Shown here: positions 5,092-62,375 of the stretch, one piece after another
Numbering within the stretch: position 1 is the stretch's first letter
Layout: every line of letters begins with the position of its first letter
Assembly: GCA_964402565.1 (NCBI GenBank)
Contig: CAYOCJ010000001.1
Span: 504,802-568,801 of the forward strand
Length of the DNA: 64,000 bases
Direction of reading: 5' to 3'
DNA from: an uncultured Gammaproteobacteria bacterium
GTDB lineage: Bacteria > Patescibacteriota > Patescibacteriia > UBA1558 > 2-01-FULL-52-15
Program-made: the position numbers and the translations under genes
Notes under the pieces: model-generated
Told to the model about the DNA's origin: nothing
Database searches by the model: none
Seen by the model: the letters and a program-made list of their open reading frames with translations, nothing else

Positions 5092-5108
5092 CAAACCAAC
5101 TGTACGGA

Positions 5109-17770: not shown

Positions 17771-17887
17771 CTCCGTACCGGCTATACCGGATTGAAAGAA
17801 CTATGGAATTTATTATAGTACATAAATCTAATAATGTCAAGTATACCGATTTACAGAAAGCATGCTTTACAGTAACCTATATACAGT

Positions 17888-22290: not shown

Positions 22291-22296
22291 AGATAT

Positions 22297-22326
22297 AGTA
22301 TAGGTGAACGTTCGTTCACCTGTCAA
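22297..22326 (-). promoter_or_regulatory. lexA promoter: -35 TTGACA, 18-nt spacer, -10 TATACT; transcript probably leaderless or with a very short leader
   Basis: Minus strand reads TTGACA-ggtgaacgaacgttcacc-TATACT. The ATG lies 7 nt after the -10. Confidence 0.6.
22302..22321. promoter_or_regulatory. LexA operator (SOS box): 20-bp near-perfect palindrome AGGTGAACGTTCGTTCACCT, GAAC-N4-GTTC (Cheo-box) type
   Basis: 9-bp inverted arms. It is located exactly in the lexA promoter spacer. The GAAC-N4-GTTC core matches Gram-positive LexA boxes. Confidence 0.7.
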
Positions 22327-22372
22327 ATGCCAGGCCTTAGCAAAGGGTTTTTACTTTTTCACTGATAGAGAA

Positions 22373-23098: not shown

Positions 23099-23103
23099 GG
23101 TAT

Positions 23104-35626: not shown

Positions 35627-36259
35627 TTAAACCGAACGTTTATCGCTATTTGATGACCTGATTTCTTTCGACAGTATCTTGCAAGCATCGTCGAACTGAT
35701 AGCAATAGACTTCGCCCGTACCAATTTCAAGATCGCCTATGGTATCATCAGTGATTTGTTCGAGGTGTTTCACAAGTGCCCGCAAAGAATTACCGTGAGC
35801 AACGATCAATACATTTTTTGCCTGAAGCAAATCATTTTTAATCTGCTCCTCATAGTACGGGACTACCCTCGCATGCACGTCTTTCAATGATTCGCCTTCA
35901 GGTATCGGCACATCCCAGCCGCGGCGTAATGCCTGGAACGCCTCGTCGCCTATCTCTTCCTTGACCTGCCATTTATTTTTCCCGGTATGAATACCGTAAT
36001 GCCGTTCATTGATCGCATGGTGGCGCCTGGTTTCTAACTCTTCGATACCAAGCTCTTTCAAAATTTCAGCGAGTGTTTGATGGGTGCGGCGTAGTGCTGA
36101 CACATAAGCGATGTGGATCGTTTCGTTTTTCAGGGCTTCCCCAGCGGCTCGCGCCTCAGCAATGCCTGTTTCTGATAAGTCAACATCAGTATGGCCGGTC
36201 CATTGGCCGAGATCATTCCATGTTGATTTGCCGTGGCGGACTAGAAAAAGGAAGGCCAT
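35627..36259 (-). CDS. gpmA: 2,3-bisphosphoglycerate-dependent phosphoglycerate mutase (histidine phosphatase superfamily)
   Basis: LVRHGKSTWN...GQWTGHTDVDLSETG matches the dPGM RHGE/QWN signature. Confidence 0.82.
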   Translation of the reverse strand: MAFLFLVRHGKSTWNDLGQWTGHTDVDLSETGIAEARAAGEALKNETIHIAYVSALRRTHQTLAEILKELGIEELETRRHHAINERHYGIHTGKNKWQVKEEIGDEAFQALRRGWDVPIPEGESLKDVHARVVPYYEEQIKNDLLQAKNVLIVAHGNSLRALVKHLEQITDDTIGDLEIGTGEVYCYQFDDACKILSKEIRSSNSDKRSV

Positions 36260-36261
36260 AG

Positions 36262-37566
36262 CTATTGCAACGCTGATGCCCCGGCATAGACGGCGCCAGC
36301 ACCTAATGACTGCTCTATGCGCAGGAGCTCGTTATATTTCGCAATACGGTCGGTACGAGACATTGAACCTGTCTTGATCTGGCCGGTGCCAAGACCAACG
36401 GCAATATGCGCGATGCTTACATCCTCGGTTTCGCCCGAGCGATGCGAGATAATAGCTTTCCAATTCGCCTTATGCGCCATATCGACTGCTTGTATGGTTT
36501 CAGTCAAAGTGCCGATCTGGTTCACTTTCACCAGGATTGCGTTTGCAGCTTGTTCGCGTATACCGCGTTCCAAAAATTTTACATTGGTAACCAGCAGATC
36601 ATCACCGACCAGCTGCATACTCTTGCCAAGCTTTGCTGTCATCTGCGACCATCCGGACCAATCATCCTCAGCTAAACCATCTTCAATGGATCGGACAGGA
36701 AATTCTTTTGAGAAATTTTCATACAAAGCGATCATTTCTGCGCTGCTATGTGCGGCATGCTCTGTCGCCAAGTTATATACTCCATCTGAAAAAAGTTCGC
36801 TTGCTGCAACATCCAAAGCAAATGCAATATCCGTACCAAGTGTATAGCCAGCTTTCGCAACTGCCTCAGCAATGAGCTCCAGAGCTTCTCTATTCCCCTT
36901 CTTGACCGCTGGCGCATAACCCCCTTCATCGCCGACTGTCGTGCCATACCCCTTTGTTTTCAAAACCCCCGCAAGCGCATGAAAGACCTCAGCCTGCATC
37001 TGTATCGCCTGTCTGAATGTTCTTGCACCCACAGGCATGATCATGAATTCCTGAATATCTGTGGAGCCTGCTGCATGCTGACCGCCATTGATGATATTGC
37101 ACAGAGGCAGCGGTAAGCACATCTCGCGTTTCACACTGGATACATCGCGAATATACTGAAAGAGCGGAACTTTCTTTGACAGAGCAGCTGCTTTTGCTGC
37201 TGCGAGTGAAACAGCGAGGATCGCATTAGCCCCCAGATTGCTCTTCGTTTCAGTTCCGTCTAATTCGATCATTTTCTGATCAATGACCGTTTGCTGAGAC
37301 GCGTCGGTGCCGATCAAAGCACGGCTGATCGGGCCTGTTACATTATCGACTGCTTTCAAAACGCCCTTGCCACCGTAGCGTGACATATCTCCATCGCGGA
37401 GCTCATGAGCCTCATGTGAGCCAGTAGACGCTCCTGAAGGAACCGCTGCCCTCCCGAGGCTTCCGTCATCCAAGATAACATCCGCCTCTACCGTCGGGTT
37501 TCCGCGTGAGTCTAGAATCTCCCTTGCTTGGATTGATTTAATTTTCATGCCGTTCAAACGTAACAA
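36262..37566 (-). CDS. eno: Enolase (copy 1)
   Basis: [32 protein letters not shown] and KYNELLRIE motifs. Confidence 0.93.
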
Positions 37567-37945: not shown

Positions 37946-38389
37946 TCATTTCTGAATTTGAGAGGACCAAAAAATTTTTTTATCATGCAGCCATTCAGCT
38001 ACACTTTCCTTCAAACCGGCGGGCAGGATATGCGTCGCGGACATTTCCGTCAAAGGCAGCCATGCAAATGAAATGTGATCTTCGCGCGAGCGCACTTCAG
38101 ACTGTGCAAGCGATCCGACAAAGACAAAACTATACTCATGCCGTTTTTGCCCGTCCTGAACAAAAAAATTCTCTGCGCTGCCCATATAGTCGCCAACATG
38201 AAGATCTAAACCGGTCTCTTCTTTTAGTTCGCGGACCAGGCATGCTTCCGCAGTTTCACCAAATTCAATATGCCCGCCTGGAAAAAAATAATGTCCTTTT
38301 CCCTGCGCTCTGCATAACAATATGCGGTCGTCATGGACAATAACAGCCCGTGCCACTAATTCAATGCCGTGCAGTTCAAGCATGCTCAT
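37946..38389 (-). CDS. NUDIX hydrolase
   Basis: Nudix box GGHIEFGETAEACLVRELKEETGL. Confidence 0.88.
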   Translation of the reverse strand: MSMLELHGIELVARAVIVHDDRILLCRAQGKGHYFFPGGHIEFGETAEACLVRELKEETGLDLHVGDYMGSAENFFVQDGQKRHEYSFVFVGSLAQSEVRSREDHISFAWLPLTEMSATHILPAGLKESVAEWLHDKKIFWSSQIQK

Positions 38390-39191
38390 ATTCGATGTGA
38401 GGATTGCTCTTTCCGCGGTACTTCATGAAATACTTGATATAACTGATATTATGCGCACGGGTGCTTTTATTGAAGAGCAGCGACAGTGCGGTGCCCTCCG
38501 AAGACCCTCCGCGCATACGAATCGCCTTTGCTTGCGGGACATACCAGACTTCATACTTTTGTTCCCAAAATCGTCGACACCAGTCAGTATCCTCAAGATA
38601 CAGGAAAAAACTTTCATCCAGATGCCCGACGCGCTCAAGCGAGCTCATGCGGGTAAGATAGCATGTACCAAAAAGCCAATCAACGCGTCGCTCAGTCGCG
38701 TGGTCCCATTCACGCAAAAAATACCAATCGAGCCATCGTTTCCCAAAAGACGTCGATCCGAGAAACGTTCTTCGAAAGAACGGCAGCCAGGGGTTTGGGA
38801 ATCTGCCGCATGTATACTGTAATGTACCATCTCCATTGCTGATCGCCGGCCCTGCAATGCCTGCCATCGGATGCTTCTCCATAAAAGCATGCAGCGTTTC
38901 GACCAGCGCCGCGGTCAACACCGTATCAGGGTTAATGATCAATGCGTACGCTCCCTGAGCATTTCTCAAACCGATATTATTGCCGGCTGCATATCCATTA
39001 TTATGCTCTGATTGAATAAATCGAACCTGCGGAAATGCATGAGCCATAAGCTCGCCGATGCCGTCATTCGAGTTATTATCTACGACGATAACTTCGACGC
39101 TGAGAGCACACGGCTGTAGATAGAAATGCTTAAGCTGCTCTGCAACCAGCTTCTTGCTTTTATAATTGAGTATGATGATCGAAACATCCAT
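38376..39191 (-). CDS. Glycosyltransferase family 2
   Basis: SIIILNYKS...VIVVDNNSNDG plus DxD context. Confidence 0.85.
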   Translation of the reverse strand: MDVSIIILNYKSKKLVAEQLKHFYLQPCALSVEVIVVDNNSNDGIGELMAHAFPQVRFIQSEHNNGYAAGNNIGLRNAQGAYALIINPDTVLTAALVETLHAFMEKHPMAGIAGPAISNGDGTLQYTCGRFPNPWLPFFRRTFLGSTSFGKRWLDWYFLREWDHATERRVDWLFGTCYLTRMSSLERVGHLDESFFLYLEDTDWCRRFWEQKYEVWYVPQAKAIRMRGGSSEGTALSLLFNKSTRAHNISYIKYFMKYRGKSNPHIEYEHA

Positions 39192-39192
39192 A

Positions 39193-40248
39193 TCATTGAA
39201 GGAGTTGAGCCATGTCTTTCAGCAACGCTGCTTTATTTTTTTGGATCATACGCCTTTTCTTCTTGAACTTCGGCAACAGTTGGAAAAATTCCAACATTCC
39301 CTTCGGGCTTGAGCCGTCCAAAAAAGCTAAATAAAAAAACTTTCCTGTCTCGAACCAGATCACTGACGGCAATTTTTTTAGCGTAATACGCCACTGATGA
39401 TTTTTGTATACCGTGAGCAAATGGTTCCGATATGAGTATCGGTTTATGCCTGAGCGCTTTTTTCGATCAGAACGGTTTTTGGGACTAAGCTCTTGCATGT
39501 ATGAAAACTCAGTTCCATCATTTCCATTTGTGCTTACTGCGCGTATCGTACGCTGATGAAATGCTATTGCATCGCCGACCAAATGCTGCTCGCAATTCTG
39601 CAAGTTAAGCCGCCAGGCAATATCGACATCTTCCTTGTATAAGAAAAAATCCTCGTCAAAATACTCGTTACCGACGCCGCCGATCCGCGGTAGTTTCACG
39701 GCTTCAAGAGCAGACCTGCGGAACATGACGCATGCACCGCTTAATCCAAAAACGCGATGAGAAACCGTTGCTTGATTTTTTTCACTCTGCATGATATCGG
39801 ATGATCGATACGGTCCCTTCACTTGTATCCCGCAGCTGTCGATCGTCCCGACTGGCTGATGCGCAGCATGGTCCCATGAGAGCAGCTTCGGTCCGACCGC
39901 GCCTGCGTGGGCATGCGCATCTGCATATCGCACCAGGCGTTCGAGGCAATGTTCTTCAAAAATAAAATCAGGGTTCACGACAAGCACATATTCAGATTTT
40001 GACCAGGCAATCGAGAGGTTATGCGCCTTTGAAAAGCCGATATTTTCCTTTTGGCGGATGACCTTCGCACTAGGCATGCATTCGCTGACCACCGCTGCTG
40101 ATCGATCATAGGAAGCATTATCGATAGCGATCAATTCCCAGTCAGTGAATGTCTGAGCATGCAAGGAATCGCAAAAATCATGCAGGTATTTCTCGCTATT
40201 ATACGTGACGACGCTGATAGAGATTTTAGGCATATGCAGGTTCAACAC
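39193..40248 (-). CDS. Glycosyltransferase family 2
   Basis: ISISVVTYNSEKYL...LIAIDNASYDRS. The start may be a few codons downstream (MPKISI), since it overlaps the upstream gene by 23 nt. Confidence 0.82.
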   Translation of the reverse strand: MLNLHMPKISISVVTYNSEKYLHDFCDSLHAQTFTDWELIAIDNASYDRSAAVVSECMPSAKVIRQKENIGFSKAHNLSIAWSKSEYVLVVNPDFIFEEHCLERLVRYADAHAHAGAVGPKLLSWDHAAHQPVGTIDSCGIQVKGPYRSSDIMQSEKNQATVSHRVFGLSGACVMFRRSALEAVKLPRIGGVGNEYFDEDFFLYKEDVDIAWRLNLQNCEQHLVGDAIAFHQRTIRAVSTNGNDGTEFSYMQELSPKNRSDRKKRSGINRYSYRNHLLTVYKNHQWRITLKKLPSVIWFETGKFFYLAFLDGSSPKGMLEFFQLLPKFKKKRRMIQKNKAALLKDMAQLLQ

Positions 40249-41695
40249 TATGCTGTAGAACCAGCATCGTCAAGAGCACATAGCCAATGCCTAATGGGTG
40301 GTTCAAATACGGGCTGACGACATGCACGATCAGGATAAAAAAAAGTCCCGAAAGCATGGAGGCTGCCCACAATGCGTCAGTCGTGTCTGCTTTCGAAATG
40401 CGCATGCTGCGGCGGAATTGGCGCACCATAATGAATGCCCAGAGAAGCATCCCGAATAATCCCCATTTCAACCATTGGTCTAGGTACCCCCACTCAAAAG
40501 AATACGTAATGACATTTCCATCGGGGTTAGATGGATTTTTGATGCGGGGATCATTTGAATGATAGCGGACCGTTGTTCCGAAGCCCTGGCCTAAAAAGGG
40601 CGACACTTTGATCGCTGAGAGCAAAGGACCCAGCAGCTGAGCACGGGAGGTGCCGGCAGCATCATTTGCGGAGAAGCGGTCAGTCAATGCGCCCTGTATA
40701 TCCTTTCCCCCATTCGGAATAAAAATAAAAGCTACTACCAGAAACCCTGCTATCGCTAAGCTTATAAACACCTTCAATGATAGATGCACAGAGTCCATGA
40801 AGCGAATTTTTCTGCGAAAGACCGCGATCGCAAAGGTCAGACCCATGGCTACGAATAAGCCGATCCAATAACTGCGCGACATGCTTGCTATAATGCCCGC
40901 GAACAGCACCCCAAGGTACACAATGCGATTGACGCGCATCGTATGATCGTGAATGATCTCGGTGACTGCGTGCATGATGGCTATGCCGATGAACAGTTGT
41001 GATTGAATAAAGATGCGCCAAATCGCAGTTCCCGTGGCAGTGATCTCGCCGACTCTCGTATCTCTAATCCATAGATAGAGATACTGCACATTCAGAGCTT
41101 CATACTGGTTGGTAAAAATATTCATCAAGATCAGTGTTTTAAATGACAGCGCTAACGCAGCTCCGGTGAAGAGCGCTTTCAGAGCCGGGATCGTTTTCTG
41201 ATCATAGACCAGGTGCCATAGGGGAATATACAGCAAATACAGATATGCATTACCGTCAAAAAAAACTGCTCCAAGCGGATGATGCAATCCCAGCCCCCGC
41301 AGCGTTGCCCACGCTGCAGGCAAAGCCAATAGCGCGTACTGCAAAGCATCGCGCTGAAAACCATGCAATGGCACAAATCTGCCTGAGTAGCGTTTCCAGG
41401 CCCAGAATCCCACGCAGATCACAAATAATACTATCCGCACCGGCAAATGCACGGGACCTAATTGCCATTGCAATTCAGAGCCGAATGAACCCCAGGTCAG
41501 CTCAGCAAGCGGCAAAATGAGCAGATTGCGTTCATCCCTTGCGATACAAAAAAAGATAAAAAAGATGACCAGTGGGAGCAGGCACCAGTTAAAAAACGGA
41601 AAGGTATAGGCAGCAAGGGAAATAACATCCAAAACAAAAAAAGCTGTAATTGCATACAACACGTTGCGTGCTATTGATGGACTGTTATTTTCCAT
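40226..41695 (-). CDS. O-antigen polymerase/ligase-like polytopic membrane protein (Wzy/WaaL superfamily)
   Basis: About 12 predicted TM helices with a large periplasmic loop. It is embedded between GT genes and a Wzx flippase. Confidence 0.5.
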   Translation of the reverse strand: MENNSPSIARNVLYAITAFFVLDVISLAAYTFPFFNWCLLPLVIFFIFFCIARDERNLLILPLAELTWGSFGSELQWQLGPVHLPVRIVLFVICVGFWAWKRYSGRFVPLHGFQRDALQYALLALPAAWATLRGLGLHHPLGAVFFDGNAYLYLLYIPLWHLVYDQKTIPALKALFTGAALALSFKTLILMNIFTNQYEALNVQYLYLWIRDTRVGEITATGTAIWRIFIQSQLFIGIAIMHAVTEIIHDHTMRVNRIVYLGVLFAGIIASMSRSYWIGLFVAMGLTFAIAVFRRKIRFMDSVHLSLKVFISLAIAGFLVVAFIFIPNGGKDIQGALTDRFSANDAAGTSRAQLLGPLLSAIKVSPFLGQGFGTTVRYHSNDPRIKNPSNPDGNVITYSFEWGYLDQWLKWGLFGMLLWAFIMVRQFRRSMRISKADTTDALWAASMLSGLFFILIVHVVSPYLNHPLGIGYVLLTMLVLQHSVEPAYA

Positions 41696-42548
41696 AGCCG
41701 CGTATGCGTTGATAGACAGCGACCATCACCAGATTCAGCGGCACCGTCGCGAGTATGGAAAGATACCCGCGAAGTCCATAGTGCTTGCTATAGTAATGCA
41801 AGGCGCTTCGATTAAATAATTTTTGTTTCACGAGCGGCAGCGACTGGGAGAAGCTGCGTCCGCCATGGTGCGTGACCAGCACATGCGGTATATACCTGAT
41901 GCGTTCCCCTGCTTCACGGAATCGCTTGCTGAGATCGACTTCTTCGAACCAAAGAAAAAAACCTTCGTCAAAAAAACCTATGCGATCGAGCACCTCTTTG
42001 CGAATGAACATAGCCGCACCCATAGGCTGGTCTATATCCTGCTGCAGAGAAGGATCAAAATCATCGGCATAATACCGGCGCATGACCTTCACATGCGAAA
42101 GAAGGTATTGTAATTTCAATAAAATAATGACCTGTGAAGTAATGGTCGGGTCGCGCCTGATCGATCCTTTTTGAAAACTCCCGTCAGCATTGACGATCTG
42201 CGGCGCTGCAACGGCGACTCCGGGATGGTCGTCCATAAAGCTGATCAGCGATTCAAGAACTCCCTCATGTAACTCAGTGTCGGGATTTAAAATAAAAACA
42301 TACCTACCCTGCGCTTGTGCAAGGCCAATATTATTCGCGCGAGCGAATCCCCTGTTCATCCCCTGTGCCTTAACCTGCACCCATGGGTATTCGTCACGAA
42401 GCATTTCGAGGCTGCCGTCCGTGGAGCCATTGTCAACCACAATGACTTCTATGGTATAGGCATTGGTCCTGCGATGGATCGAGTCTAAGCATAATTTCAG
42501 ATACTCACGGACATTCCAGTTGACGATGATAATGGAGCAATCGACCAT
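41685..42548 (-). CDS. Glycosyltransferase family 2
   Basis: CSIIIVNWNVREYL...VIVVDNGSTDGS. Confidence 0.85.
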   Translation of the reverse strand: MVDCSIIIVNWNVREYLKLCLDSIHRRTNAYTIEVIVVDNGSTDGSLEMLRDEYPWVQVKAQGMNRGFARANNIGLAQAQGRYVFILNPDTELHEGVLESLISFMDDHPGVAVAAPQIVNADGSFQKGSIRRDPTITSQVIILLKLQYLLSHVKVMRRYYADDFDPSLQQDIDQPMGAAMFIRKEVLDRIGFFDEGFFLWFEEVDLSKRFREAGERIRYIPHVLVTHHGGRSFSQSLPLVKQKLFNRSALHYYSKHYGLRGYLSILATVPLNLVMVAVYQRIRGYGK

Positions 42549-42549
42549 A

Positions 42550-43716
42550 TCAGACGCTTAACTTCTTATCGATGATATCAAGCATCTGGCGGGTACTCGC
42601 TGACCATGAATATTCCTCGACCACCTGCGCACGGGCACGGTGCAACTCAGGCGTATCTTCCTGTAATGCGACGAATAGCTTTCTATTCATATCCTCATCC
42701 GTTTCCGCGATATACACATACTCTTTCAGCGAATCGACCCCAGAGCTCGAAGTAGCGAGCACCGGTATGCCACAGGCTAGGTATTCGTACATTTTCATCG
42801 GATTCGTCGAGGTGACGAATGCTGATGCCCGGTGCGGAATTAAGCCGACATCAAACTGCTGAATATACATGGGCGCTTCGGCGTATGATTTATAACCGAG
42901 CAGATGAATATTCGGCACTTCTTTCAAGGAACCGGCATCTGCATCATGCCAAACGGGGCCCACGATAACGAATGATTTGGCAGGATTTTTTTTCGCCAGG
43001 AATTTTATGAGATCAATGTCTACACGGTCTTGGACAACTCCGATATACCCGATGATTGGTTTTGGCAAGTCGGCGATATCGCGATTCACCAGCACATGCT
43101 TCGACTGGTAATGCGTTATGTCGACGCCGTTCGGAATCCAATAGACATTCGACTGATTATCAAAAAGCTTCTGGAGATCATCCGCGACCGTAAAGATCAC
43201 ATCGGTGGTTTTCTTGATCTGTTCGTAATTTTTTTTCAATCGCTCCTTGAATCGCGCATAGGAAGCATGCTCGATCCAATTATCAACGGCATCGAAAACG
43301 GTCAATTTTGGATCCAGCTGCTGGATATACGGTGTCATGAACGGGAAATATGACCAGACTACGCTCTCATGAAAATCGAGTTTCGCAGCTATTTTTTTTA
43401 CGCTCTGTATAAAATGGCCTGGCCGGATGCAAAACTCACTATTTGAATATACATACAGTTTATCAGAAAGCTTCGTTACTTTATCATATAATGACCACGA
43501 TATGACTTTTCCGTCCTTCAGAGGCGGTACAACATTTTCTATATGATTCCGCAGCGCTCTCTTCAAGGTCAACGGCGGATAATCGACCGCAAGAATTTTA
43601 CGTACCTGTTCGGATTGCAAAAGCTGGCGCAGTACATGATAGTTGCGATTGCTGACACCGCGCTGCCACTCAGCATATCCTGACATATTGAACATGATGA
43701 TATCGAACTGTTTCAT
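42550..43716 (-). CDS. Glycosyltransferase, GT-B fold (GT4-like)
   Basis: C-terminal GLIPHRAS...NPMKMYEYLACGIPVLATSSSGV matches the E-x7-E GT4 motif region. Confidence 0.7.
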   Translation of the reverse strand: MKQFDIIMFNMSGYAEWQRGVSNRNYHVLRQLLQSEQVRKILAVDYPPLTLKRALRNHIENVVPPLKDGKVISWSLYDKVTKLSDKLYVYSNSEFCIRPGHFIQSVKKIAAKLDFHESVVWSYFPFMTPYIQQLDPKLTVFDAVDNWIEHASYARFKERLKKNYEQIKKTTDVIFTVADDLQKLFDNQSNVYWIPNGVDITHYQSKHVLVNRDIADLPKPIIGYIGVVQDRVDIDLIKFLAKKNPAKSFVIVGPVWHDADAGSLKEVPNIHLLGYKSYAEAPMYIQQFDVGLIPHRASAFVTSTNPMKMYEYLACGIPVLATSSSGVDSLKEYVYIAETDEDMNRKLFVALQEDTPELHRARAQVVEEYSWSASTRQMLDIIDKKLSV

Positions 43717-43719
43717 AGC

Positions 43720-44814
43720 TTATGACAATATTTGCTCCAATACTTCTGCCTGCTGTTTCCAATCAGGAATAACGCTCAAATGCTGCTGAGCGTTCTTGCC
43801 AAGGAAGGCGGCTAGCTCGCGATCCTGCAGCAAATGGACCAGCGCTTCAGTGATATCCTCCAGGTTTTCGCCGTCTGCATATACCCCGCAGGCGTCGCCG
43901 CCGATCGCTTCAGCAGTACCCGGTGTTTTTCCCGCAAGGATGGGCAATGCAAAAAAAGCAGCCTCGAGGTATACGATGCCAAAACCTTCAATATCTCCTC
44001 CTATCGTACGTGTCGGCATCGCGAACAACGAAGCTTGTTTATAGTAAGCGCCCAATTTCGAGTCAGGCAGATCGCTGATGATATCGACGTGGCGCTCCAG
44101 GTGCAATTCGGTGATCAGCTCCTCTAAGTAACCCCGGTCAGGTCCGTCGCCTACAATGCAATAATGAGCATCGGGCACTTTTTTGATAACTTCCGGCATC
44201 GCCTGAATGATCATATCCTGTCCTTTGCGCTTGACCAGGCGTCCCACGGTTAAAATTAATTTCTTTTTTCCATACTTTTTTATCGCCTCGCCTGCTGCCT
44301 TATCATTTACGGATAATTTACCTTTATTGAAGTATGGGGTGATCACGGTAATCGGCGATTGCAGTTTCAGATCTGCAACTATCTTTTTAGTTGCCTGGCT
44401 ATTAACCACGATATGCTGCGCACCCTTTAAAATACTCGTGGTCATAGACCGCTTGTTTGCAAGCCCCAGATTGATATCAAGGCCATGCAACGATATGACA
44501 TACGGTATTTTCAAAGATTTGCCTACCGCTTGAGCTATATTACCGAGAGGAAGTACATTAGGCGTCATAATGCACTCGATGCCATGCTCTTTGGCTATTT
44601 TTTTTACTACTGAGATGCCTCTGAACCAGCTTGGCTTCATGAAAGAAGACAGGAGTTTTTTGTTGATGATCGGCACTCTTCGGTCAGATGCTTTTTGATC
44701 GGTCAATACGATGTACCTATGCGGAGGCAGATGTTCAAATAAGTTATAGCAATACCTGGCTATGCCGCCACGGTATGGATAGTATTCATGCGTTAGTAGT
44801 AAGGTCTTTTTCAT
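43720..44814 (-). CDS. Glycosyltransferase family 4
   Basis: LLLTHEYYPYRGGIARY N-terminus and a C-terminal FGIVYLEAAFFALPILAGKTPGTAE (EX7E) motif. Confidence 0.85.
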   Translation of the reverse strand: MKKTLLLTHEYYPYRGGIARYCYNLFEHLPPHRYIVLTDQKASDRRVPIINKKLLSSFMKPSWFRGISVVKKIAKEHGIECIMTPNVLPLGNIAQAVGKSLKIPYVISLHGLDINLGLANKRSMTTSILKGAQHIVVNSQATKKIVADLKLQSPITVITPYFNKGKLSVNDKAAGEAIKKYGKKKLILTVGRLVKRKGQDMIIQAMPEVIKKVPDAHYCIVGDGPDRGYLEELITELHLERHVDIISDLPDSKLGAYYKQASLFAMPTRTIGGDIEGFGIVYLEAAFFALPILAGKTPGTAEAIGGDACGVYADGENLEDITEALVHLLQDRELAAFLGKNAQQHLSVIPDWKQQAEVLEQILS

Positions 44815-46268
44815 GCCCGTTTCAAAAGCGCTTTTACTTGATGCAGCGTCTCATGCGTAATAATGTTCTGCACCCAAAGTCCGGCTACGTACACTCCTAC
44901 CCCGGCCAGAATAGCAATATACCATGGTCCATAGTGAAGCAACCCTCGAATAACAACGTAGCATAAGGCGCCGCTCAACAAAATTCTGAATGCGATCGAC
45001 AGAGCATCAGCGCTGTCAAAATGCAGTACTGTTTGCGCAACCATGATACCCAGCACAAAGACAACCGTCGTACTGATAAGAGATGCGATAGCTGCACCAG
45101 TGATGCCCAGCAAAGGGATCAAGATCACATTCAAAAAGACCGTGGCCACAACCCCGACAGCCAAATGCAGCGTCTGGCGGTTTTGCCTTCCGATGGCATT
45201 CAAGAGCGATCCAATGGGAAAATTTATAAAAAGAAGCGGCAGCGAAGCACAGAGCAAAATCAGCGGCATCACCGATCCTGCAAATTCATCTCGGTACACC
45301 AGCGGTATGATCACGCGCGCTGAACCTGCAATAATTGCAACAACAGGTACTGAAAAGATCAGCAGATAGGTGCATGCCTGTACGAAAATTCTCGGCAGCC
45401 GTTCACGGTCATGATGCCACATTGAGGTAAATGCCGGGTACAAGCTGGCTACGAATGCCATCGGAATGAACTGAAATGCAAAAGTGATCTTGTAGGCGAC
45501 ACTGTAAAGGCCAACGGCTGTGTCATTCAACAGTGCTTTAACGAGAATGGTGTCAGTGTACGCATTCGCTTTGATGCATAACATGGCTACTGCAAACGGA
45601 GCAGCCAGATACAGCAGGCGGATCAGCAGTTTTTGATCAAAGGCCACTGGCGCATGATTGACGAGCATCTTGCGCATAGCAGATATGCCTATCGCGCAGT
45701 TCACCATGCTGCCCAAGAGCAAGGCGCACATGAGAATGGTGACCGGCGCATGTTGATACATTGCAATGCCGCCTGCGCATAATACGGTCACCTGAAACAC
45801 AACGGCAGAAATGCTTTCGTACCATAGATTTTGAAAAGCGCGCACTGTGGCAAATAACGATAAGGATACGGTATCGAAGACCGCAATAGCAAGCGCAATA
45901 TAGATCAAATGCCTCTGAACAGCGTCGGGAGCGATCCATCCGCTCAGCCCAATAAGACCAAGGATCAATACAACAGCAAGCGCTGCTTTAATATACAGCG
46001 TGTGCCAAAGTATCTTTTTTGCATGCTCATGGTCACGGGCCACCTCGCGGGTCAATGCCGGCGTCAAACCAATATCAACAATGCCGATGACTATCCCTGC
46101 TACTGAAAGCGCAAAAAAATACTTGCCGGTCAACGCAGCGCCTAATGACCGGGCGATAAAGACAAAATACAAAAAAGAGAGCGCTTTCTGTATGGTCAGT
46201 GCAGCAATGTAAAATGTCGTATTTTTGGCTATTCTCGTACCCGTAACAGCTGTTTGCATGATGCTCAT
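44811..46268 (-). CDS. wzx: Wzx-type polysaccharide flippase (MOP superfamily)
   Basis: About 14 TM helices. The N-terminal NTTFYIAALTIQKALSFLYFVFIARSLG is typical of Wzx/PST family proteins. Confidence 0.75.
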   Translation of the reverse strand: MSIMQTAVTGTRIAKNTTFYIAALTIQKALSFLYFVFIARSLGAALTGKYFFALSVAGIVIGIVDIGLTPALTREVARDHEHAKKILWHTLYIKAALAVVLILGLIGLSGWIAPDAVQRHLIYIALAIAVFDTVSLSLFATVRAFQNLWYESISAVVFQVTVLCAGGIAMYQHAPVTILMCALLLGSMVNCAIGISAMRKMLVNHAPVAFDQKLLIRLLYLAAPFAVAMLCIKANAYTDTILVKALLNDTAVGLYSVAYKITFAFQFIPMAFVASLYPAFTSMWHHDRERLPRIFVQACTYLLIFSVPVVAIIAGSARVIIPLVYRDEFAGSVMPLILLCASLPLLFINFPIGSLLNAIGRQNRQTLHLAVGVVATVFLNVILIPLLGITGAAIASLISTTVVFVLGIMVAQTVLHFDSADALSIAFRILLSGALCYVVIRGLLHYGPWYIAILAGVGVYVAGLWVQNIITHETLHQVKALLKRA

Positions 46269-46534: not shown

Positions 46535-46564
46535 CAAAAAAGAATAGTCCTTTCGGACTATTCT
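46535..46564 (-). terminator. Rho-independent terminator ending the ribosomal-protein operon (after rpsI)
   Basis: Minus strand reads agaatagtcc-gaaa-ggactattct followed by TTTTTT. Confidence 0.7.
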
Positions 46565-46588: not shown

Positions 46589-46996
46589 TTAACGCTTTGA
46601 CCACTGAGGAGCTCGTCGTGCTTTCTTCAAACCCGGCTTCTTACGCTCTTTCACGCGCGGATCTCGAGTCAACATGCCATTTTTTTTGAGGGTTGCGCGG
46701 TATTCCTCGTTCATGACGATTAATGCTCTTGCAATACCAAGGCGAATTGCTTCAGCCTGGGAATTAATGCCGCCGCCTTGTACTTTGATAGTTACCGGCA
46801 GCATCTCATGGCCGGTCAATTTCAACGGGCTCATGATGACTTCCTGCCACTGCGGATAGTTGAAGTATGCGTCGTAATTTCTGTCATTCACGGTGATCGA
46901 AACTCCAGAACCAGCTTTCGCGTGAAGACGAACACGGGCGATCGATGATTTGCGCCGGCCAACTGTTGCAATATAATCTTTCTTCTTGGTCACCAT
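46589..46996 (-). CDS. rpsI: 30S ribosomal protein S9
   Basis: C-terminal ...KKARRAPQWSKR and an S9 core. Confidence 0.93.
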   Translation of the reverse strand: MVTKKKDYIATVGRRKSSIARVRLHAKAGSGVSITVNDRNYDAYFNYPQWQEVIMSPLKLTGHEMLPVTIKVQGGGINSQAEAIRLGIARALIVMNEEYRATLKKNGMLTRDPRVKERKKPGLKKARRAPQWSKR

Positions 46997-47001
46997 AGGT
47001 A

Positions 47002-47373
47002 TTATTTGGCTTTCTTTGCTTTAGTAAAAGTTAATCGCTTGATCATGACCGGACGCAGTTTGTTCTTTGGCAACATGGCATAGACCATTTTTCTCAAAAG
47101 CTCTTCCGGATTCGTCGCCATGCGTTCACCCAGGCTTTTACTCATAATGCCGCCAGGATAGCCCGTGAAACGATGATATTTCTTATTTGAAAGTTTCTTA
47201 CCGGTGAACTTCAGCTGTGCAACGTTTTCGACCGCAACAAAATCACCCGCATCAATGTGATGCTGAAAGCTGACTTTATGCTTGCCCTGCAGCCAGGTCG
47301 CAATCTGGCTTGCAAGCCTGCCGCCAACTTTTCCTGCTGCATCTACAGAGTGTTTTGTGCGTTCAATGGTCAT
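47002..47373 (-). CDS. rplM: 50S ribosomal protein L13
   Basis: The L13 core is ...DAAGKVGGRLASQIATWLQGKHK.... The start was trimmed to MTIERTKH at 47373, 2 nt after the rplQ stop; the longer track ORF overlaps rplQ. Confidence 0.88.
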   Translation of the reverse strand: MTIERTKHSVDAAGKVGGRLASQIATWLQGKHKVSFQHHIDAGDFVAVENVAQLKFTGKKLSNKKYHRFTGYPGGIMSKSLGERMATNPEELLRKMVYAMLPKNKLRPVMIKRLTFTKAKKAK

Positions 47374-47374
47374 A

Positions 47375-47725
47375 TTATACAAATTCAATGCGAACCATAG
47401 GCGCTGCATCACCCTGGCGCTGACCGAGCTTGGTGATGCGCAAATAGCCGCCAGGTCGCTCTTTATAGCGAGGTCCAAGCACTTCAAGAATTTTCTTAAC
47501 CGCTTTTTTCTCAGGCAAATACTTTCCCAGTTCCTGTTTAGCATGCAGAGACTTGACCTTGCCTTTCGTTACCAGGCGTTCAACAACGGGACGAATGGCA
47601 CGCGCCTTCGTCGCTGTGGTCGTTACTTTCTCATATAAAATAACGCTAGTCGCCAAATTCGAAAGCATAGCCTTGCGCGGCCCTGTCTTCCTTCCAAATT
47701 TAAATACTTTCTTTTGGTGGCGCAT
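47375..47725 (-). CDS. rplQ: 50S ribosomal protein L17
   Basis: MRHQKKVFKFGRKTGPRKAMLSNLATSVI matches the L17 N-terminus. Confidence 0.92.
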   Translation of the reverse strand: MRHQKKVFKFGRKTGPRKAMLSNLATSVILYEKVTTTATKARAIRPVVERLVTKGKVKSLHAKQELGKYLPEKKAVKKILEVLGPRYKERPGGYLRITKLGQRQGDAAPMVRIEFV

Positions 47726-47730
47726 ACGTG

Positions 47731-48501
47731 TTATTCAGCTGATGGTGCTTCTTCATTTTTTTCTGCTTTGTCTGCTTTCTCAGCCTTGGCCTTCTTCTTT
47801 GATTCCTTTACCGGCTCTGCTCCTGCAATTGCTGAGAACTGTTCCTGCAAGATGGCGACGCATTTCTGGACTGCATCTTCAGCGCTCATTGTGCCGTCAG
47901 TCGTTACTGATAAAACTACTTTCTCATAATCAGTACGTTGGCCGACTCGCGTATGCTCGATATTGAAACCGACATTAGCAATCGGGCTGAAGATCGAATC
48001 GATTTGCATCAAACCAATATCCTTCTTATCAACCACACGCTCCTCGACTGGCTCGTAGCCAATGCCTTTCTTAACCACAATTTCCATTGAAAGATCAGCC
48101 TTTTTATCCGTCAGAGTAGCGATAACCATATCAGTATTGATGATCTCAACATCAGCATTCTTCTTTATGTCTGCAGCGGTGACTTCCTTTTCGCCTTTTG
48201 CATGCAATTCAAGCGTTACCGGCTCATCACTGTGGCAAACGACGCGGAGTTTCTTCAAATTCATCATGATCTGTACGATATCTTCCTTCACATGATCCAG
48301 CGTATCGTATTCATGCTGTACGCCATTGACCTTGATGGCACATACTGCTGCGCCTGGCAATGATGATAACAGCACGCGTCGAAGCGCATTGCCTACCGTC
48401 GTTCCATAGCCAGGATAGCAAGGCTCAATGACGACCTCAGTCATATTGTTCTTGCCTGCAGTGTATTTCACCGTTGTTGGTGTTGGAATTGCGCTCGACA
48501 T
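47731..48501 (-). CDS. rpoA: DNA-directed RNA polymerase alpha subunit, NTD only (no alpha-CTD; Lys/Ala/Glu-rich tail)
   Basis: The alpha-NTD core is EPCYPGYGTTVGNALRRVLLSSLPGAAV. The protein is 256 aa and ends in ...KESKKKAKAEKADKAEKNEEAPSAE with no helix-hairpin-helix CTD. The next gene (rplQ) starts 6 nt downstream, so there is no room for a CTD. Confidence 0.85.
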   Translation of the reverse strand: MSSAIPTPTTVKYTAGKNNMTEVVIEPCYPGYGTTVGNALRRVLLSSLPGAAVCAIKVNGVQHEYDTLDHVKEDIVQIMMNLKKLRVVCHSDEPVTLELHAKGEKEVTAADIKKNADVEIINTDMVIATLTDKKADLSMEIVVKKGIGYEPVEERVVDKKDIGLMQIDSIFSPIANVGFNIEHTRVGQRTDYEKVVLSVTTDGTMSAEDAVQKCVAILQEQFSAIAGAEPVKESKKKAKAEKADKAEKNEEAPSAE

Positions 48502-48528: not shown

Positions 48529-49143
48529 TTAACGTGAATAGAACTCGACGATAAGATATGTTTCGATATTTTGCGGGAGCTCTTCAGGCTTTGGTTCTGC
48601 GGTCACCGTGATCGAAAGATCCTTAGCATTAACTGACAACCAGCCGGGAACATCTGCCTTTTTCATAGTTTCAAGTACATTCTTCCAATAGGTCGCTCCT
48701 GTTTTTGTGGCTCGCACCTTAATGACTTGGCCGACTTTCACGGTATATGACGGAATATCGACGCGGGCGCCGTTGATCTCGAAATGGCCATGGTTCACAA
48801 GCTGACGAGCTAATTGCTTCGTCGATGCGAGGCCTGAGCGGAACACCACATTATCAAGCCTCTTCTCAAGCAAGGTCATCAAATTAGTCCCAGCGCTGCC
48901 AGGCAATGCCTGAGCCTTTTTAAATGTATTTCTAAATTGACGCTCCAGCAAACCATAGATAAACTTGGCCTTCTGCTTTTCTCGCAGCTGCTTGCCATAA
49001 TCAGAGAGCTTGCCACGCGTCTTTTTCTGTCCATGCTGTCCCGGCGGATAATTCCGCTTAACAACTGGGCACTTGAAACTATCGCAAAGTTTGATTCCTT
49101 CGCGGCGGCAGAGTTTATGCTTTGGTCCTGTTTTACGAGCCAT
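48529..49143 (-). CDS. rpsD: 30S ribosomal protein S4
   Basis: MARKTGPKHKLCRREGIKLC N-terminus and an S4 domain. Confidence 0.93.
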   Translation of the reverse strand: MARKTGPKHKLCRREGIKLCDSFKCPVVKRNYPPGQHGQKKTRGKLSDYGKQLREKQKAKFIYGLLERQFRNTFKKAQALPGSAGTNLMTLLEKRLDNVVFRSGLASTKQLARQLVNHGHFEINGARVDIPSYTVKVGQVIKVRATKTGATYWKNVLETMKKADVPGWLSVNAKDLSITVTAEPKPEELPQNIETYLIVEFYSR

Positions 49144-49149
49144 ACTGTT

Positions 49150-49581
49150 TTATACTCTTCGGGCTTTCTTAGCGCGCACGCCATTGTGCGGGATCGGGGT
49201 TGTGTCCTTGATCGAGAGCACTTCAAGTCCAGCGCCATGCAAAGCGCGGACTGCTGATTCGCGTCCCTGTCCTACGCCTTTCACAAATACATCCACTTCT
49301 CGAAGCCCATATTCGCGGGCTTTCTCAACTGCAGCGCGTGAAATGATACCAGCTGCATAGGGCGTTGATTTCTTCGGCCCCTTGAACCCATTCTTCCCAG
49401 CGGATGACCAAGCCAGAACATTGCCCTGCGGATCAGTAATGCTGACGATAGTATTATTATAGGTTGCCTGCACATAGGCGCGGCCACGCGGAACGATCTG
49501 CTTCTTCTTTTTGCGTGCTTTAACCTTCGGCGCTGCAACTGCATCGGTAGTATCTGCTGCTGGTTTCTTTTGTTCGTCCAT
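49150..49581 (-). CDS. rpsK: 30S ribosomal protein S11
   Basis: C-terminal ...[18 protein letters not shown]. Confidence 0.93.
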
Positions 49582-49595
49582 AGTCTCTATAAAAA

Positions 49596-49985
49596 TTATG
49601 TCTTCTGAGCAGCTGCCTTACGACCGCTTCCCATAGTCTTACGTACATTGCCGCGTACAGTCCTGGTATTAGTCTTGGTGCGCTGGCCGCGTACCGGCAA
49701 ATGCTTCGCGTGTCGCGAACCGCGATAGCTATTGATCTCTTTCAATCGCTTGATGTTCGAAAGCACTTCGCGCCTCAAATCACCCTCGACCCGATGCGTA
49801 TCTTCAATCACGCGTCGAAGATTATTTACTTCGCTTTCTGAAAGATTTTTCACTCTGGTATCCGGATTGATCTTCAGCTGGGCAAGGATTTTTTGAGATG
49901 TGGTAAGCCCGATACCGTAGATATAGGTAAGCGCTACTTCAACTCGCTTCTCCACTGGAATGGTAACTCCTGCTATACGTGCCAT
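49596..49985 (-). CDS. rpsM: 30S ribosomal protein S13
   Basis: [26 protein letters not shown]. Confidence 0.93.
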
Positions 49986-49988
49986 AGA

Positions 49989-50102
49989 TTATCCTTGTCT
50001 CTGCTTATGCTTAGGATTTTCGCAAATAACAACCAAACGTCCCTTTCTGCGGACCTTTTGGCATTTTGAACAAATTTCTTTTACAGAAGCTCGTACCTTC
50101 AT
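49989..50102 (-). CDS. rpmJ: 50S ribosomal protein L36 (37 aa; absent from ORF track)
   Basis: Manual translation of the minus strand gives [37 protein letters not shown] with the zinc-ribbon C..C...C..H pattern. It sits between infA and rpsM, as in canonical operons. Confidence 0.88.
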
Positions 50103-50106
50103 TCGA

Positions 50107-50340
50107 TTATTTACGATATGTTATGCGCCCCTTGGTGAGGTCGTACGGACTGATCTCAACCCGAACTCTGTCACCTGGTATCAAGCGAATTTTATTCATC
50201 CGCATTTTTCCGGACAAATGACACAAAATTTCATGTCCATTATCCAAAGTCACCTTGAATGTAGCGCTCGGAAGTAATTCCTCGACCACACCCTCCATCT
50301 CTATAAATCCTTTGGACGTATCTTGGCTGTCTTGTGGCAT
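50107..50340 (-). CDS. infA: Translation initiation factor IF-1
   Basis: S1-like OB fold: [60 protein letters not shown]. Confidence 0.92.
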
Positions 50341-50398
50341 TAGTCTCTCTTAAACAAAAACTATAATCAGCCGTAAAGGCTGAAAATAACTCGTGATA

Positions 50399-50426
50399 AT
50401 TATACAGTTTTTCTCTAACCTGTCAA
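50399..50426 (-). promoter_or_regulatory. Sigma70-type promoter of the infA-ribosomal operon (-35 TTGACA, -10 TATAAT)
   Basis: Minus strand reads TTGACAggttagagaaaaactgTATAAT, about 55 nt upstream of infA. Confidence 0.6.
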
Positions 50427-50498
50427 GAATTAAAGCTCCCGCAGTACCTTAAACCAACTGCATGTAAAAACAGCACTAATATTAGCATTTTCTGACTA

Positions 50499-50527
50499 TT
50501 GACAAAAATTAGATAATCGTGTATATT
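50499..50527 (+). promoter_or_regulatory. Divergent outward-facing consensus promoter (-35 TTGACA, 17-nt spacer, -10 TATATT)
   Basis: Plus strand reads TTGACAaaaattagataatcgtgTATATT. It drives the GC-rich 250-nt unit described below. Confidence 0.55.
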
Positions 50528-50605
50528 GTTGACGATTGATTTCTGGTCTTCGAGTCCGGCAAACAGTCCACAAACCAAAACCAACGTCGAAAGGGAGGTG
50601 GTACC

Positions 50606-50707
50606 TTGAACAAGTTCCATTGCACCGCAGCGCGGAGCGCGCATCTGGGCCTGAAGGCCATTTATAACAACGCGACCGGCGACGCCGAGACCAGCTCGAT
50701 CAACTGA
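50606..50707 (+). CDS. Candidate small ORF (33 aa, TTG start) inside a GC-rich promoter-terminator cassette; may instead be part of a non-coding RNA
   Basis: Strong SD GGGAGGTG lies 5 nt upstream of TTG. Predicted peptide: (M)NKFHCTAARSAHLGLKAIYNNATGDAETSSIN. No homology recognised. Confidence 0.25.
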   Translation: MNKFHCTAARSAHLGLKAIYNNATGDAETSSIN

Positions 50708-50724
50708 TCGACCAGGCCGACGGC

Positions 50725-50790
50725 AAGGGGCAGCACTCGTGGAAATGGGAAGACCATTTTCAATGAGCAGCTGCCCCTTCTCTTTTCCAA
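50725..50790 (+). terminator. Rho-independent terminator of the small plus-strand unit
   Basis: ggggcagc ... gctgcccc two-tier stem followed by ttctcttttcc. Confidence 0.55.
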
Positions 50791-50794
50791 AAAA

Positions 50795-57951: not shown

Positions 57952-59547
57952 CTAGAGTAGCGATATCCCGATAATCTCATCGGGTTTTTTTAACCCCATT
58001 ATTTTTAAAATGGTCGCAGTTATATCCGGCAAAATACCGGCAGATGAAGCCATACTCAAATCGTGTCCACGAATACCATAGGAGACATTTTTACCCTGCC
58101 ATGGTTTACCAATAATGATAAAGGGCACCGGATTATTTGAATGCATCTTATCAACCGCGCCAGTTTGTAAATTAAAGAGGCTTTCGGCATTACCGTGATC
58201 TGCAGTAATCAAAACCGCACCATCATAGGCAAGGGCAGTATCGACGATCTGACCTATGCACTCATCCAGCACCTGAACGGCTTCGATCGTTGCCTGCAAA
58301 TTTCCGGTGTGGCCTACCATGTCTGCATTGGCAAAGTTAACGACGATAAAGTCATATTTCGACTCGCGGATCTCGGATATCAACCGAGCCGTGATTTCCC
58401 GGGCGCTCATTGCTGGTTTTTGATCATAGGATGCAGATTTTACTGATGGTATCAAGATATGCTCCTCGCCGGGATATTTCTTCTCCTGGCCTCCGTTAAA
58501 AAAATAAGTCACATGCGCATATTTTTCTGTTTCTGCGATATGCAGCTGGGCTAAGCCTGCGTCGCTTATGACTTTAGCCAGAGGCATCGTAACTGCTTCC
58601 GGAGGAAAGGCGACAGGCACCGGCAAATCTTTTTCATACTCGGTCATTGCAAGAAAATGCAGATCCTGCATATACACACGTTCAAATTTATTAAAACCCG
58701 GAAGTACAAAAGCTTTCGTTAACTGACGTGCCCGGTCGGCGCGAAAGTTAAAGAAGACAACACCATCCCCATTTGAGATCGTTGCCACCGGTTTTCCATG
58801 ATCAGTGATGACCGTCGGCACTAATTGCTCGTCATAGACGCCCTTATCGTATGACTCCTGAATGGCCTTCTGCGGATCGTCAGACATGACATCAGCAACA
58901 CCCTGTACCATAGCGCGATACGCTTTCTCAGTGCGATCCCACCTATTATCCCTGTCCATGGCATAGAAACGGCCGGCAAGCGTAGCGATTTTTCCAATGC
59001 CTAATTTTTTCAACACATCCTGCAGCTTACTGACAAAGGTCAATCCGCTATTGAGCGGCGTATCTCTGCCGTCGAGAAAACAATGTATAAATACCTTCTC
59101 CATTTTTTGCTGTTCGGCCAATTCTAACAGCGCATACAGGTGCTCATTGAAGCTATGCACGCCTCCCGAGCTGACCAAACCTATGATATGCAATGCCGTG
59201 CCGTTCTTTTTGACCGTCTTGTACAGCTCGAGAAATTCTTTATTCTGAAAAAAAGTTCCGTCTGCGATCGATTTTGAAATACGCGGCAGGCTCTGATACA
59301 GCACTCTGCCTGATCCAAGGCTCAAGTGGCCCACCTCCGAATTGCCTACCTCGCCCCACGACAAGCCTACTGCTTCCCCTGCGGCCTGTATGGACATGGC
59401 CGGATAATTCGTCAAATACGAATCCATGTTCGGCGTCTTGGCAAGACTGATGGCATTAGCCCGGGATGGCGGCGCAATGCCCCACCCGTCGAGTACGATC
59501 AGTACCACAGGGCGCGGTCGGACAAATGGTGCATTCGAGGGTGGCAT
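57952..59547 (-). CDS. gpmI: 2,3-bisphosphoglycerate-independent phosphoglycerate mutase (copy a)
   Basis: VLIVLDGWGI, GNSEVGHLSLGSGR (catalytic Ser) and ITADHGN. Confidence 0.9.
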   Translation of the reverse strand: MPPSNAPFVRPRPVVLIVLDGWGIAPPSRANAISLAKTPNMDSYLTNYPAMSIQAAGEAVGLSWGEVGNSEVGHLSLGSGRVLYQSLPRISKSIADGTFFQNKEFLELYKTVKKNGTALHIIGLVSSGGVHSFNEHLYALLELAEQQKMEKVFIHCFLDGRDTPLNSGLTFVSKLQDVLKKLGIGKIATLAGRFYAMDRDNRWDRTEKAYRAMVQGVADVMSDDPQKAIQESYDKGVYDEQLVPTVITDHGKPVATISNGDGVVFFNFRADRARQLTKAFVLPGFNKFERVYMQDLHFLAMTEYEKDLPVPVAFPPEAVTMPLAKVISDAGLAQLHIAETEKYAHVTYFFNGGQEKKYPGEEHILIPSVKSASYDQKPAMSAREITARLISEIRESKYDFIVVNFANADMVGHTGNLQATIEAVQVLDECIGQIVDTALAYDGAVLITADHGNAESLFNLQTGAVDKMHSNNPVPFIIIGKPWQGKNVSYGIRGHDLSMASSAGILPDITATILKIMGLKKPDEIIGISLL

Positions 59548-62373: not shown

Positions 62374-62375
62374 GA

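Follow-up and report, generated by a model that had tools for sequence, protein, structure and literature searches.

[quoted passage not shown] Textbooks count the alpha-CTD among the standard parts of bacterial RNA polymerase; UP elements are read by it, and CRP-type and many other activators make their contact with it. The CTD-less alpha subunit and its occurrence in Patescibacteria are already known, from a one-sentence mention for Patescibacteria/Parcubacteria in PMC8321222; the full-text literature that we have searched beyond this paper holds no further relevant statement or analysis of the trait, and the source that the paper cites (Nelson & Stegen 2015) lists rpoA among the core genes but contains no discussion of RNA polymerase.

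The rpoA gene is located on the minus strand, which corrects an earlier description of it, and it occupies the canonical rpoA position in an operon of the order infA-rpsM-rpsK-rpsD-rpoA-rplQ-rplM-rpsI. The features of this locus are the following:

50399..50426, minus strand: candidate promoter of the operon, TTGACA-16 nt-TATAAT (12/12 consensus match)
49150..50340, minus strand: infA, rpsM and rpsK, located further upstream in the operon (gene calls)
48529..49143, minus strand: rpsD, S4, directly upstream of rpoA (Pfam PF00163 and PF01479)
47731..48501, minus strand: rpoA coding sequence, 256 aa and TAA stop, no C-terminal domain (ORF list, sequence, Pfam, TIGR02027, PDB phmmer)
47827..48501, minus strand: alpha-NTD, residues 1-225, the domain of dimerisation and beta/beta' assembly, containing GNALRRVLLSS (AlphaFold2, Foldseek, invariant residues)
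47734..47826, minus strand: low-complexity tail, 31 aa, residues 226-256, AGAEPVKESKKKAKAEKADKAEKNEEAPSAE (pLDDT 46-59; its start aligns with the linker of a Pseudomonas alpha chain)
47758..47808, minus strand: Lys-rich patch, K232-K248, in the proximal part of the tail (comparison with the 95% orthologue and the Komeilibacteria subclade)
47726..47730, minus strand: 5-nt gap from the stop codon of rpoA to the start codon of rplQ (direct reading)
47375..47725, minus strand: rplQ, ribosomal protein L17, 116 aa (Pfam PF01196 over 1-97 of 97, E=3.8e-32)
47002..47373, minus strand: rplM, L13, 123 aa by the gene call in L003, whose DNA is the same (L003 gene calls and Pfam)
46589..46996, minus strand: rpsI, S9, with which the operon ends (gene calls)
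46541..46564, minus strand: intrinsic-terminator-like hairpin just 3' of rpsI, a 10-bp stem followed by a T run (sequence)

The rpoA reading frame starts with ATG, its product begins with MSSAIPTPTT, and it ends at a TAA stop codon. The sequence-only reading had noted a gene directly downstream of rpoA, and rplQ is indeed found there, on the same strand, but at a distance of 5 nt (47726-47730) instead of the 6 nt that had been given. Rfam and tRNA scans of the 64-kb window have returned nothing, and a LexA-like repressor, adjoining the gene of a DinB-family (impB/mucB/samB) polymerase, is the sole regulator that we have recognised there.

The domain content of the window RpoA is limited, in Pfam, to full matches of PF01000 (residues 56-172, E=2.7e-32) and PF01193 (residues 26-222, E=1.2e-20), while PF03118 (RNA_pol_A_CTD) is not matched even at E<=1. 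The NCBIfam equivalog model for rpoA, TIGR02027, identifies the protein with 261.3 bits against a cut-off of 227.8; this model is matched up to position 231 of 298, and the NCBIfam rpoA models in general are matched only up to about position 231-250 of their 298-344. The sub-models of PRK05182 remain under their cut-offs (e.g. NF003519, with 273.4 against 277), because the part that corresponds to the CTD is missing. In agreement with these matches, a phmmer search of the PDB retrieves alpha chains of RNA polymerase at E values of about 1e-55, always over their first 225-250 residues or so. Judging from these sequence comparisons, the protein is clearly an alpha subunit of the bacterial type; the archaeal RpoD and the eukaryotic Rpb3/AC40 are homologous assembly subunits that are likewise devoid of an alpha-CTD, but they are matched only remotely, the scores of the respective models being far below cut-off (NF001988, 30.9 against 153; NF011548, 21.8 against 194).

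The structure that AlphaFold2 predicts for the window RpoA, from an alignment of 69 homologues, has a mean pLDDT of 87, with values of about 90 or higher over residues 10-228 or so and values of 46-59 in the last 26 residues. All Foldseek matches of this model in the PDB are alpha chains of RNA polymerase (E of about 1e-26), with target-normalised TM-scores of about 0.85-0.92, the value of 0.92 being reached with NTD-only chains, and an rmsd of about 2 Å over some 220 residues. Residues N38, R41, R42, S46 and S47 of the alpha-NTD are invariant across the 69 homologues, and the segment GNALRRVLLSS is identical to that of the aligned Pseudomonas alpha chain; the E. coli counterpart of the GNALRR motif holds the beta-binding arginine. 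An RpoA of 256 residues, composed of the NTD core and a Lys/Ala/Glu-rich tail without an alpha-CTD, was what the sequence-only reading had described, and Pfam, TIGR02027, AlphaFold2 and Foldseek all bear this description out, with the length of the tail being 31 aa.

Three other explanations would deny the gene its status as the only, naturally short rpoA. Since the source sequence is a metagenome assembly, the short rpoA could be an error of assembly or sequencing, or a pseudogene, with the real gene being full length; we give this explanation next to no credence. The identical 256-aa protein occurs on three contigs, two of which come from runs SRR12313479 and SRR12313480, i.e. it recurs in independent assemblies of different runs; the same architecture is shared by an orthologue with 95% identity (L001, 256 aa), by another with 74% identity (L002, 268 aa) and by more than 100 further relatives, and the alpha-NTD is highly conserved. 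As rplQ begins 5 nt after the TAA codon and covers the full L17 model, the locus has no room for a CTD that is hidden or frameshifted, and the rpoA genes of L001 and L002 also stop at TAA, 5-10 nt before rplQ. We know of no bacterial genetic code in which TAA is reassigned. The recurrence of the identical reading frame in independent assemblies and the layout that the orthologues share also settle, in favour of an intact gene, the check for a frameshift or a split gene that had been suggested for this locus.

It is very unlikely, in turn, that the CTD is encoded elsewhere, be it by a small ORF of its own or as part of another protein, although our CTD search covered about 64 kb of a genome that, by comparison with CPR genome sizes, probably measures between several hundred kb and about 1 Mb. 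In the six frames of the 64-kb window, a local HMM made from the CTDs of two Patescibacteria-like proteins and those of E. coli, B. subtilis and Thermus has found no CTD (best E=10), and no CTD has been found in the examined flanks of 10 CTD-less loci. The best CTD-like match of tblastn in the window (E=0.27, 23494-23634, plus strand) was discarded: it lies antisense to the gene of a tyrosine recombinase (integrase) and has no CTD or HhH match in Pfam. A search for stand-alone CTDs with the CTD of P0077 gave seven candidates and a single match, P0121, a PF03118 ORF of 50 aa that is separate from the 227-aa NTD ORF of the same relative (L005). P0121 was rejected as a relocated CTD: it is situated exactly between the NTD ORF and rplQ, i.e. 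at its native position, with the break occurring where the frame shifts, and the lineage of L005 retains the CTD, its intact orthologue P0077 being a fused NTD-CTD protein, so that the break looks like a frameshift or an assembly error and not like a relocated gene; for the window organism this match carries no information. The CTD is probably absent from the rest of the genome as well. Equally, the CTD could be supplied in a heterodimer by a second, full-length rpoA from outside the one 64-kb stretch of genome that was covered, as in Francisella, whose RNA polymerase holds two non-identical alpha subunits (PMC3294249); this arrangement is extremely unlikely here, given that the window rpoA occupies the canonical position in the ribosomal-protein operon, that the nearest relatives of the clade show only short forms, and that the alpha chains of Francisella, with 317 and 323 aa in their PDB entries, are both of full length.

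The naturally CTD-less form of the gene is also what the relatives of the window RpoA display. We have drawn the taxonomic breadth of the trait from named database matches and cluster look-ups. The closest named proteins belong to Candidatus Komeilibacteria (73-77% identity), a lineage that the NCBI taxonomy places within the Parcubacteria group of Patescibacteria, and the more distant named matches belong to Nomurabacteria, Kerfeldbacteria and unclassified Patescibacteria. Among the 120 nearest protein clusters, 118 lack PF03118, their lengths being 217-313 aa. An exhaustive HMMER search of 1.84 billion representatives at 50% identity has given 8762 matches, and the best 150 of these comprise 92 proteins with a CTD and 58 without, the latter being mostly short forms with low-complexity tails and otherwise fragments or frameshifted junk. 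Pfam finds PF03118 in 15 of the 69 aligned homologues, the same 15 that our home-made HMM has flagged.

In a neighbour-joining tree of the NTD region of 243 sequences, the window RpoA is located inside a pure CTD-less clade of 111 members; smaller CTD-less clades of 11, 8 and 5 members occur elsewhere in the tree, and the state inferred for its root is CTD-present. Parsimony on this crude tree needs about 20 changes of the CTD state, so that either the loss has a more complex history than one event would give, or the tree is noisy. At least two CTD-bearing proteins are labelled as Patescibacteria (P0135 and P0137), and P0077 and P0099, which are 55-57% identical to the window RpoA, keep the CTD at the same operon position; the retention of the CTD in some Patescibacteria indicates that its loss is derived within the radiation. 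By these sequence-based counts, the loss is fixed in a large part of the Patescibacteria radiation. The expectation that the truncation might be lineage-wide has accordingly been borne out by the 118 of 120 nearest clusters and by the clade of 111, while the presentation of the trait as a property of a single organism does not hold, since it is clade-wide and had already been mentioned in print (PMC8321222). Seven further CTD-less loci have the same rpoA-rplQ junction and the same infA-rpsM-rpsK-rpsD-rpoA-rplQ-rplM-rpsI synteny. At six of these seven, the locus runs on into a flippase/glycosyltransferase cluster, in most of them together with Wzy, as is also the case in the window.

Compared with the CTD-less RpoA of Patescibacteria/Parcubacteria that is mentioned in PMC8321222, the window RpoA has the same arrangement of NTD and low-complexity tail, the same lack of PF03118 and the same operon position. 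Its identity to the proteins of Komeilibacteria, Nomurabacteria, Kerfeldbacteria and the "Patescibacteria group" ranges from 54 to 95%, and the related CTD-less proteins of the databases, about 245-295 aa long, are annotated as "DNA-directed RNA polymerase subunit alpha"; we see no essential difference from them, other than a lineage-specific tail, in which a proximal Lys patch gives way to an acidic end. The canonical RpoA (329 aa in E. coli, 315 aa in Thermus) shares with the window protein the fold of the NTD, at about 40-45% identity, and the GNALRR motif, but it also has a helix-hairpin-helix CTD of about 70-85 aa for UP elements and activators, which the window RpoA lacks. The laboratory truncations of the E. 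coli alpha subunit (Igarashi, Ishihama, Hayward), as far as they are described in PMC8321222, have essentially the design of the window RpoA; such CTD-less mutants assemble the polymerase and support basal transcription, but not the stimulation by UP elements or by CRP at class I promoters. Those truncations, however, are engineered, in a host with CTD-dependent promoters and activators, whereas the truncation in Patescibacteria is a natural one that has become fixed throughout a clade. Natural losses of the alpha-CTD have been described elsewhere, in Hodgkinia, Tremblaya and the plastids of Euglena (PMC8321222), where the NTD is retained, as in the window RpoA. In these endosymbionts and organelles the NTD is often eroded, whereas the window NTD is intact and its clade is large, diverse and environmentally widespread. 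Genomes of the Hodgkinia/Tremblaya type are well under 200 kb in size.

The tail of the window RpoA (AGAEPVKESKKKAKAEKADKAEKNEEAPSAE) is composed of Lys, Ala or Glu at 24 of its 31 residues, and its 8 Lys residues are balanced by 8 Asp or Glu residues, for a net charge of 0. Its start, AEPVKE, is aligned by phmmer with the inter-domain linker of a full-length Pseudomonas alpha chain (SEPVVE in 7xya_A); because of this alignment, the tail is best read as the retained linker with a few extra residues. Neither the length nor the sequence of the tail is conserved among relatives: the tails of 155 CTD-less relatives are 16-90 aa long and have no conserved sequence, but they fall into clade-structured classes, with 32 being purely acidic, 52 mixed (the class of the window tail), 57 having a terminal Lys/Arg cluster and 14 being AT-hook-like. 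RGRP flanked by Lys (e.g. KPKKRGRPKK or KRGRPKK) occurs in 13 of the 155 tails (about 8%), always 3-7 residues from the C-terminus. This diversity of the tails, above all the recurrent terminal AT-hook-like motif in the relatives, seems unreported, and we have found no paper that links the AT-hook to RpoA in our full-text literature search.

A linker remnant under weak constraint is our default reading of the window tail. A different reading, compatible with the main explanation and left out of account in the sequence-only reading, would regard the tail as a minimal functional substitute for the alpha-CTD: in the CTD-less Patescibacteria clade, the leftover tail would have turned into a short linear DNA-contact module that tethers the polymerase to upstream A/T-rich DNA, in the form of a C-terminal AT-hook-like KRGRPKK, a Lys cluster or, in the lineage of the window, a conserved proximal Lys patch. 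In the window protein, this patch (KESKKKAKAEK) would contact the DNA upstream of the -35 element non-specifically, through electrostatic forces, while in related lineages the C-terminal Lys cluster or KRGRPKK would read the minor groove of A/T-rich DNA. The minor groove of A/T tracts is where AT-hooks bind, which resembles the binding of the alpha-CTD to UP elements and makes a convergent replacement an attractive idea; we nevertheless regard such a substitution as unlikely in the clade, and a functional DNA-contact role of the window tail itself as doubtful.

The observations that speak for a DNA contact are partly local and partly comparative. The window tail and that of the 95% orthologue agree in all of their first 18 residues but differ in 6 of the last 13, and the densest Lys/Arg cluster lies 4-12 residues past the NTD in 20 of the 22 relatives of the Komeilibacteria subclade; the conservation of the proximal Lys patch in close relatives hints that the tail may reflect more than drift alone. 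Shuffling leads one to expect 0.03 RGRP tails against the 13 observed, all with the motif near the C-terminus, terminal Lys/Arg clusters are present in 57 further tails, and the Pfam AT_hook model gives 12.9-15.6 bits in 4 of the 10 tails tested. These scores, however, are all below the Pfam cut-off of 17.4 bits, and the AT-hook core (GRP/RGRP) is absent from the window tail, whose net charge is zero and whose Lys clustering, taken alone, does not exceed that of shuffled sequences (p=0.51). The purely acidic tails of 32 of the 155 relatives would repel DNA, so that DNA contact cannot be a general requirement, and the proximal part of the window tail aligns with the ordinary linker of a full-length alpha subunit. 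The DNA upstream of the predicted promoters also fails to distinguish the lineages: its A/T excess is alike in those with an AT-hook (+0.024, n=14) and in those with an acidic tail (+0.005, n=8), and, among few and predicted promoters, the AT-hook, acidic, mixed and CTD-containing lineages are not told apart by their upstream A/T content.

The flat upstream A/T content is also seen in the window. The candidate promoter of the operon has a perfect core consensus, and its DNA at -38 to -59 is not A/T-rich (…GGTACTGCGGGAGCTTTAATTC); the A+T content at -59 to -38 of the 12 sigma-70 promoters predicted in the window is 0.58, compared with 0.57 in intergenic DNA, a comparison of few and predicted sites, and the upstream A/T excess of the window and the two orthologous loci together is +0.001 (n=13 predicted promoters). 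These values agree with a lack of UP elements, although a sample of about 12 predicted promoters is underpowered.

The mechanism that we propose for the naturally CTD-less rpoA begins in the ancestor of a large Patescibacteria clade, where the gene would have been cut back just past the inter-domain linker, leaving a short, disordered and charged remnant that would drift freely in length and composition. The complete NTD of 225 residues should still dimerise and scaffold beta and beta', and, judging from this intact domain and the invariant GNALRR motif, the protein would be expected to assemble into an active alpha2-beta-beta' enzyme. Initiation would then proceed via the promoter contacts of sigma and core alone, with promoter strength being set by these contacts and by regulators whose target is sigma or the core enzyme, or which work as repressors. 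With the alpha-CTD lost, the polymerase would have no folded domain for UP elements or class I activators, and it is reasonable to suppose, as the sequence-only reading had done, from the established knowledge of the alpha-CTD in E. coli, that transcription takes place without UP elements and without alpha-CTD-dependent (class I) activation. According to PMC12531629, the CPR clade notably lacks proteins of the CRP/FNR type with both domains, an absence that fits the loss of the domain they would contact.

For the window itself, the gain is mostly one of correct annotation, in that the short rpoA is real and not a broken gene. If the module proposed for the tails were true, it would represent a convergent, motif-sized substitute for the interaction between the folded alpha-CTD and the UP element. 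In a very large and abundant radiation without an alpha-CTD, a layer of transcription control that is known from model organisms does not apply; its loss is in keeping with the small sets of regulators that these bacteria have, and the CTD-less clade offers a natural experiment on the evolution of promoters and regulation without an alpha-CTD.

The C-terminal tails of the RpoA relatives that lack the alpha-CTD differ widely in composition: among 155 such homologues, 32 tails are purely acidic, 52 are of a mixed Lys/Glu type, 57 carry a C-terminal Lys/Arg cluster (for example KKKTTKKKSK) and 14 are AT-hook-like, with the classes being structured by clade. Because the charges of the tails are so different, the classes suggest that the roles of the tails differ, or that the tails have no role at all.

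In the AT-hook-like class, a K(K)KRGRPKK motif is located three to seven residues before the C-terminus of the disordered tail (homologues P0045, P0057, P0060, P0078, P0094/95, P0104, P0109, P0113, P0126, P0127, P0166 and P0190; related rpoA loci L007-L010). The motif occurs in 13 of the 155 tails, where shuffling expects 0.03, and parsimony on a crude tree gives approximately nine state changes; the Pfam AT_hook scores of these tails are below threshold, and our literature search found no paper that connects an AT-hook with RpoA.

Two perfect sigma-70 consensus promoters (12/12; TTGACA, 16 or 17 nt, TATAAT) are predicted in the window, one of them preceding infA and the rpoA operon. The only regulator that we recognised in the window is a LexA-like protein, which adjoins a DinB/UmuC-family polymerase.

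17812-17840, minus strand: predicted sigma-70 promoter, 12/12
50399-50426, minus strand: predicted sigma-70 promoter, 12/12, ahead of infA and the rpoA operon
50341-50794: gene-free stretch of 454 nt between alaS and infA
50499-50527, strand opposite to the 50399-50426 promoter: sigma-70 match, 11/12, inside the gene-free stretch
21724-22326, minus strand: LexA-like S24 peptidase/repressor
20409-21740, minus strand: DinB/UmuC-family polymerase
Within 20409-24048, minus strand: methyltransferase, then XerC/D-type tyrosine recombinase (23104-24048)

The rpoA-rplQ-rplM-rpsI genes are followed by a polysaccharide flippase and GT4/GT1/GT2 cluster (37946-46268), and the same arrangement is found in six of the seven related loci (including L008, L009 and L011-L013), most of these clusters also containing a Wzy polymerase; this synteny is kept down to approximately 55% RpoA identity. 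Elsewhere in the window, a surface protein with a sortase gene directly after it resembles a pilus or adhesin of the kind that sortases assemble, and a role in host attachment is plausible. The genes of lower glycolysis occur in duplicate in the small genome (35627-37566 and 57952-63539), with the two enolases being 51% identical and the tandem phosphoglycerate mutases 43% identical to each other. The lysyl-tRNA synthetase is of class I, which we take to be the archaeal type, the usual bacterial enzyme being of class II. Across the whole 64 kb (1-64000), no tRNA gene was found and no Rfam family scored above its gathering score.

1300-5765, plus strand: surface protein of 1263 aa (VWA and SpaA/prealbumin-fold pilin domains), sortase gene directly after
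6976-8061: PilM-like gene
33384-35033, minus strand: class I lysyl-tRNA synthetase (PF01921)
35627-36259: candidate histidine-phosphatase-type mutase
36262-37566 and 61093-62412: enolases
57952-59547 and 59550-61199: tandem cofactor-independent phosphoglycerate mutases
62376-63539: PGK gene

The record of the locus L001 (CAYRBH010000001.1) bears the title "uncultured Gammaproteobacteria bacterium". Its rpoA shares 95% identity with the window protein, the other closest named relatives of which are Komeilibacteria, and the label of the L001 MAG looks wrong. In L005, a CTD-retaining relative of the homologue P0077, rpoA is called as two ORFs (4182-5153), a 227-aa NTD and a 50-aa PF03118 immediately ahead of rplQ, with the frame breaking directly past the NTD; since the contig name points to a long-read assembly, this break is probably an indel error, and a true split gene is unlikely. 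Lastly, in L010 (3398-7251), an OmpR-type response regulator (Response_reg and Trans_reg_C) and a PAS histidine kinase adjoin the infA-rpoA operon; the alpha subunit of this lineage is CTD-less, and its OmpR-type activators would need to act without alpha-CTD contacts.
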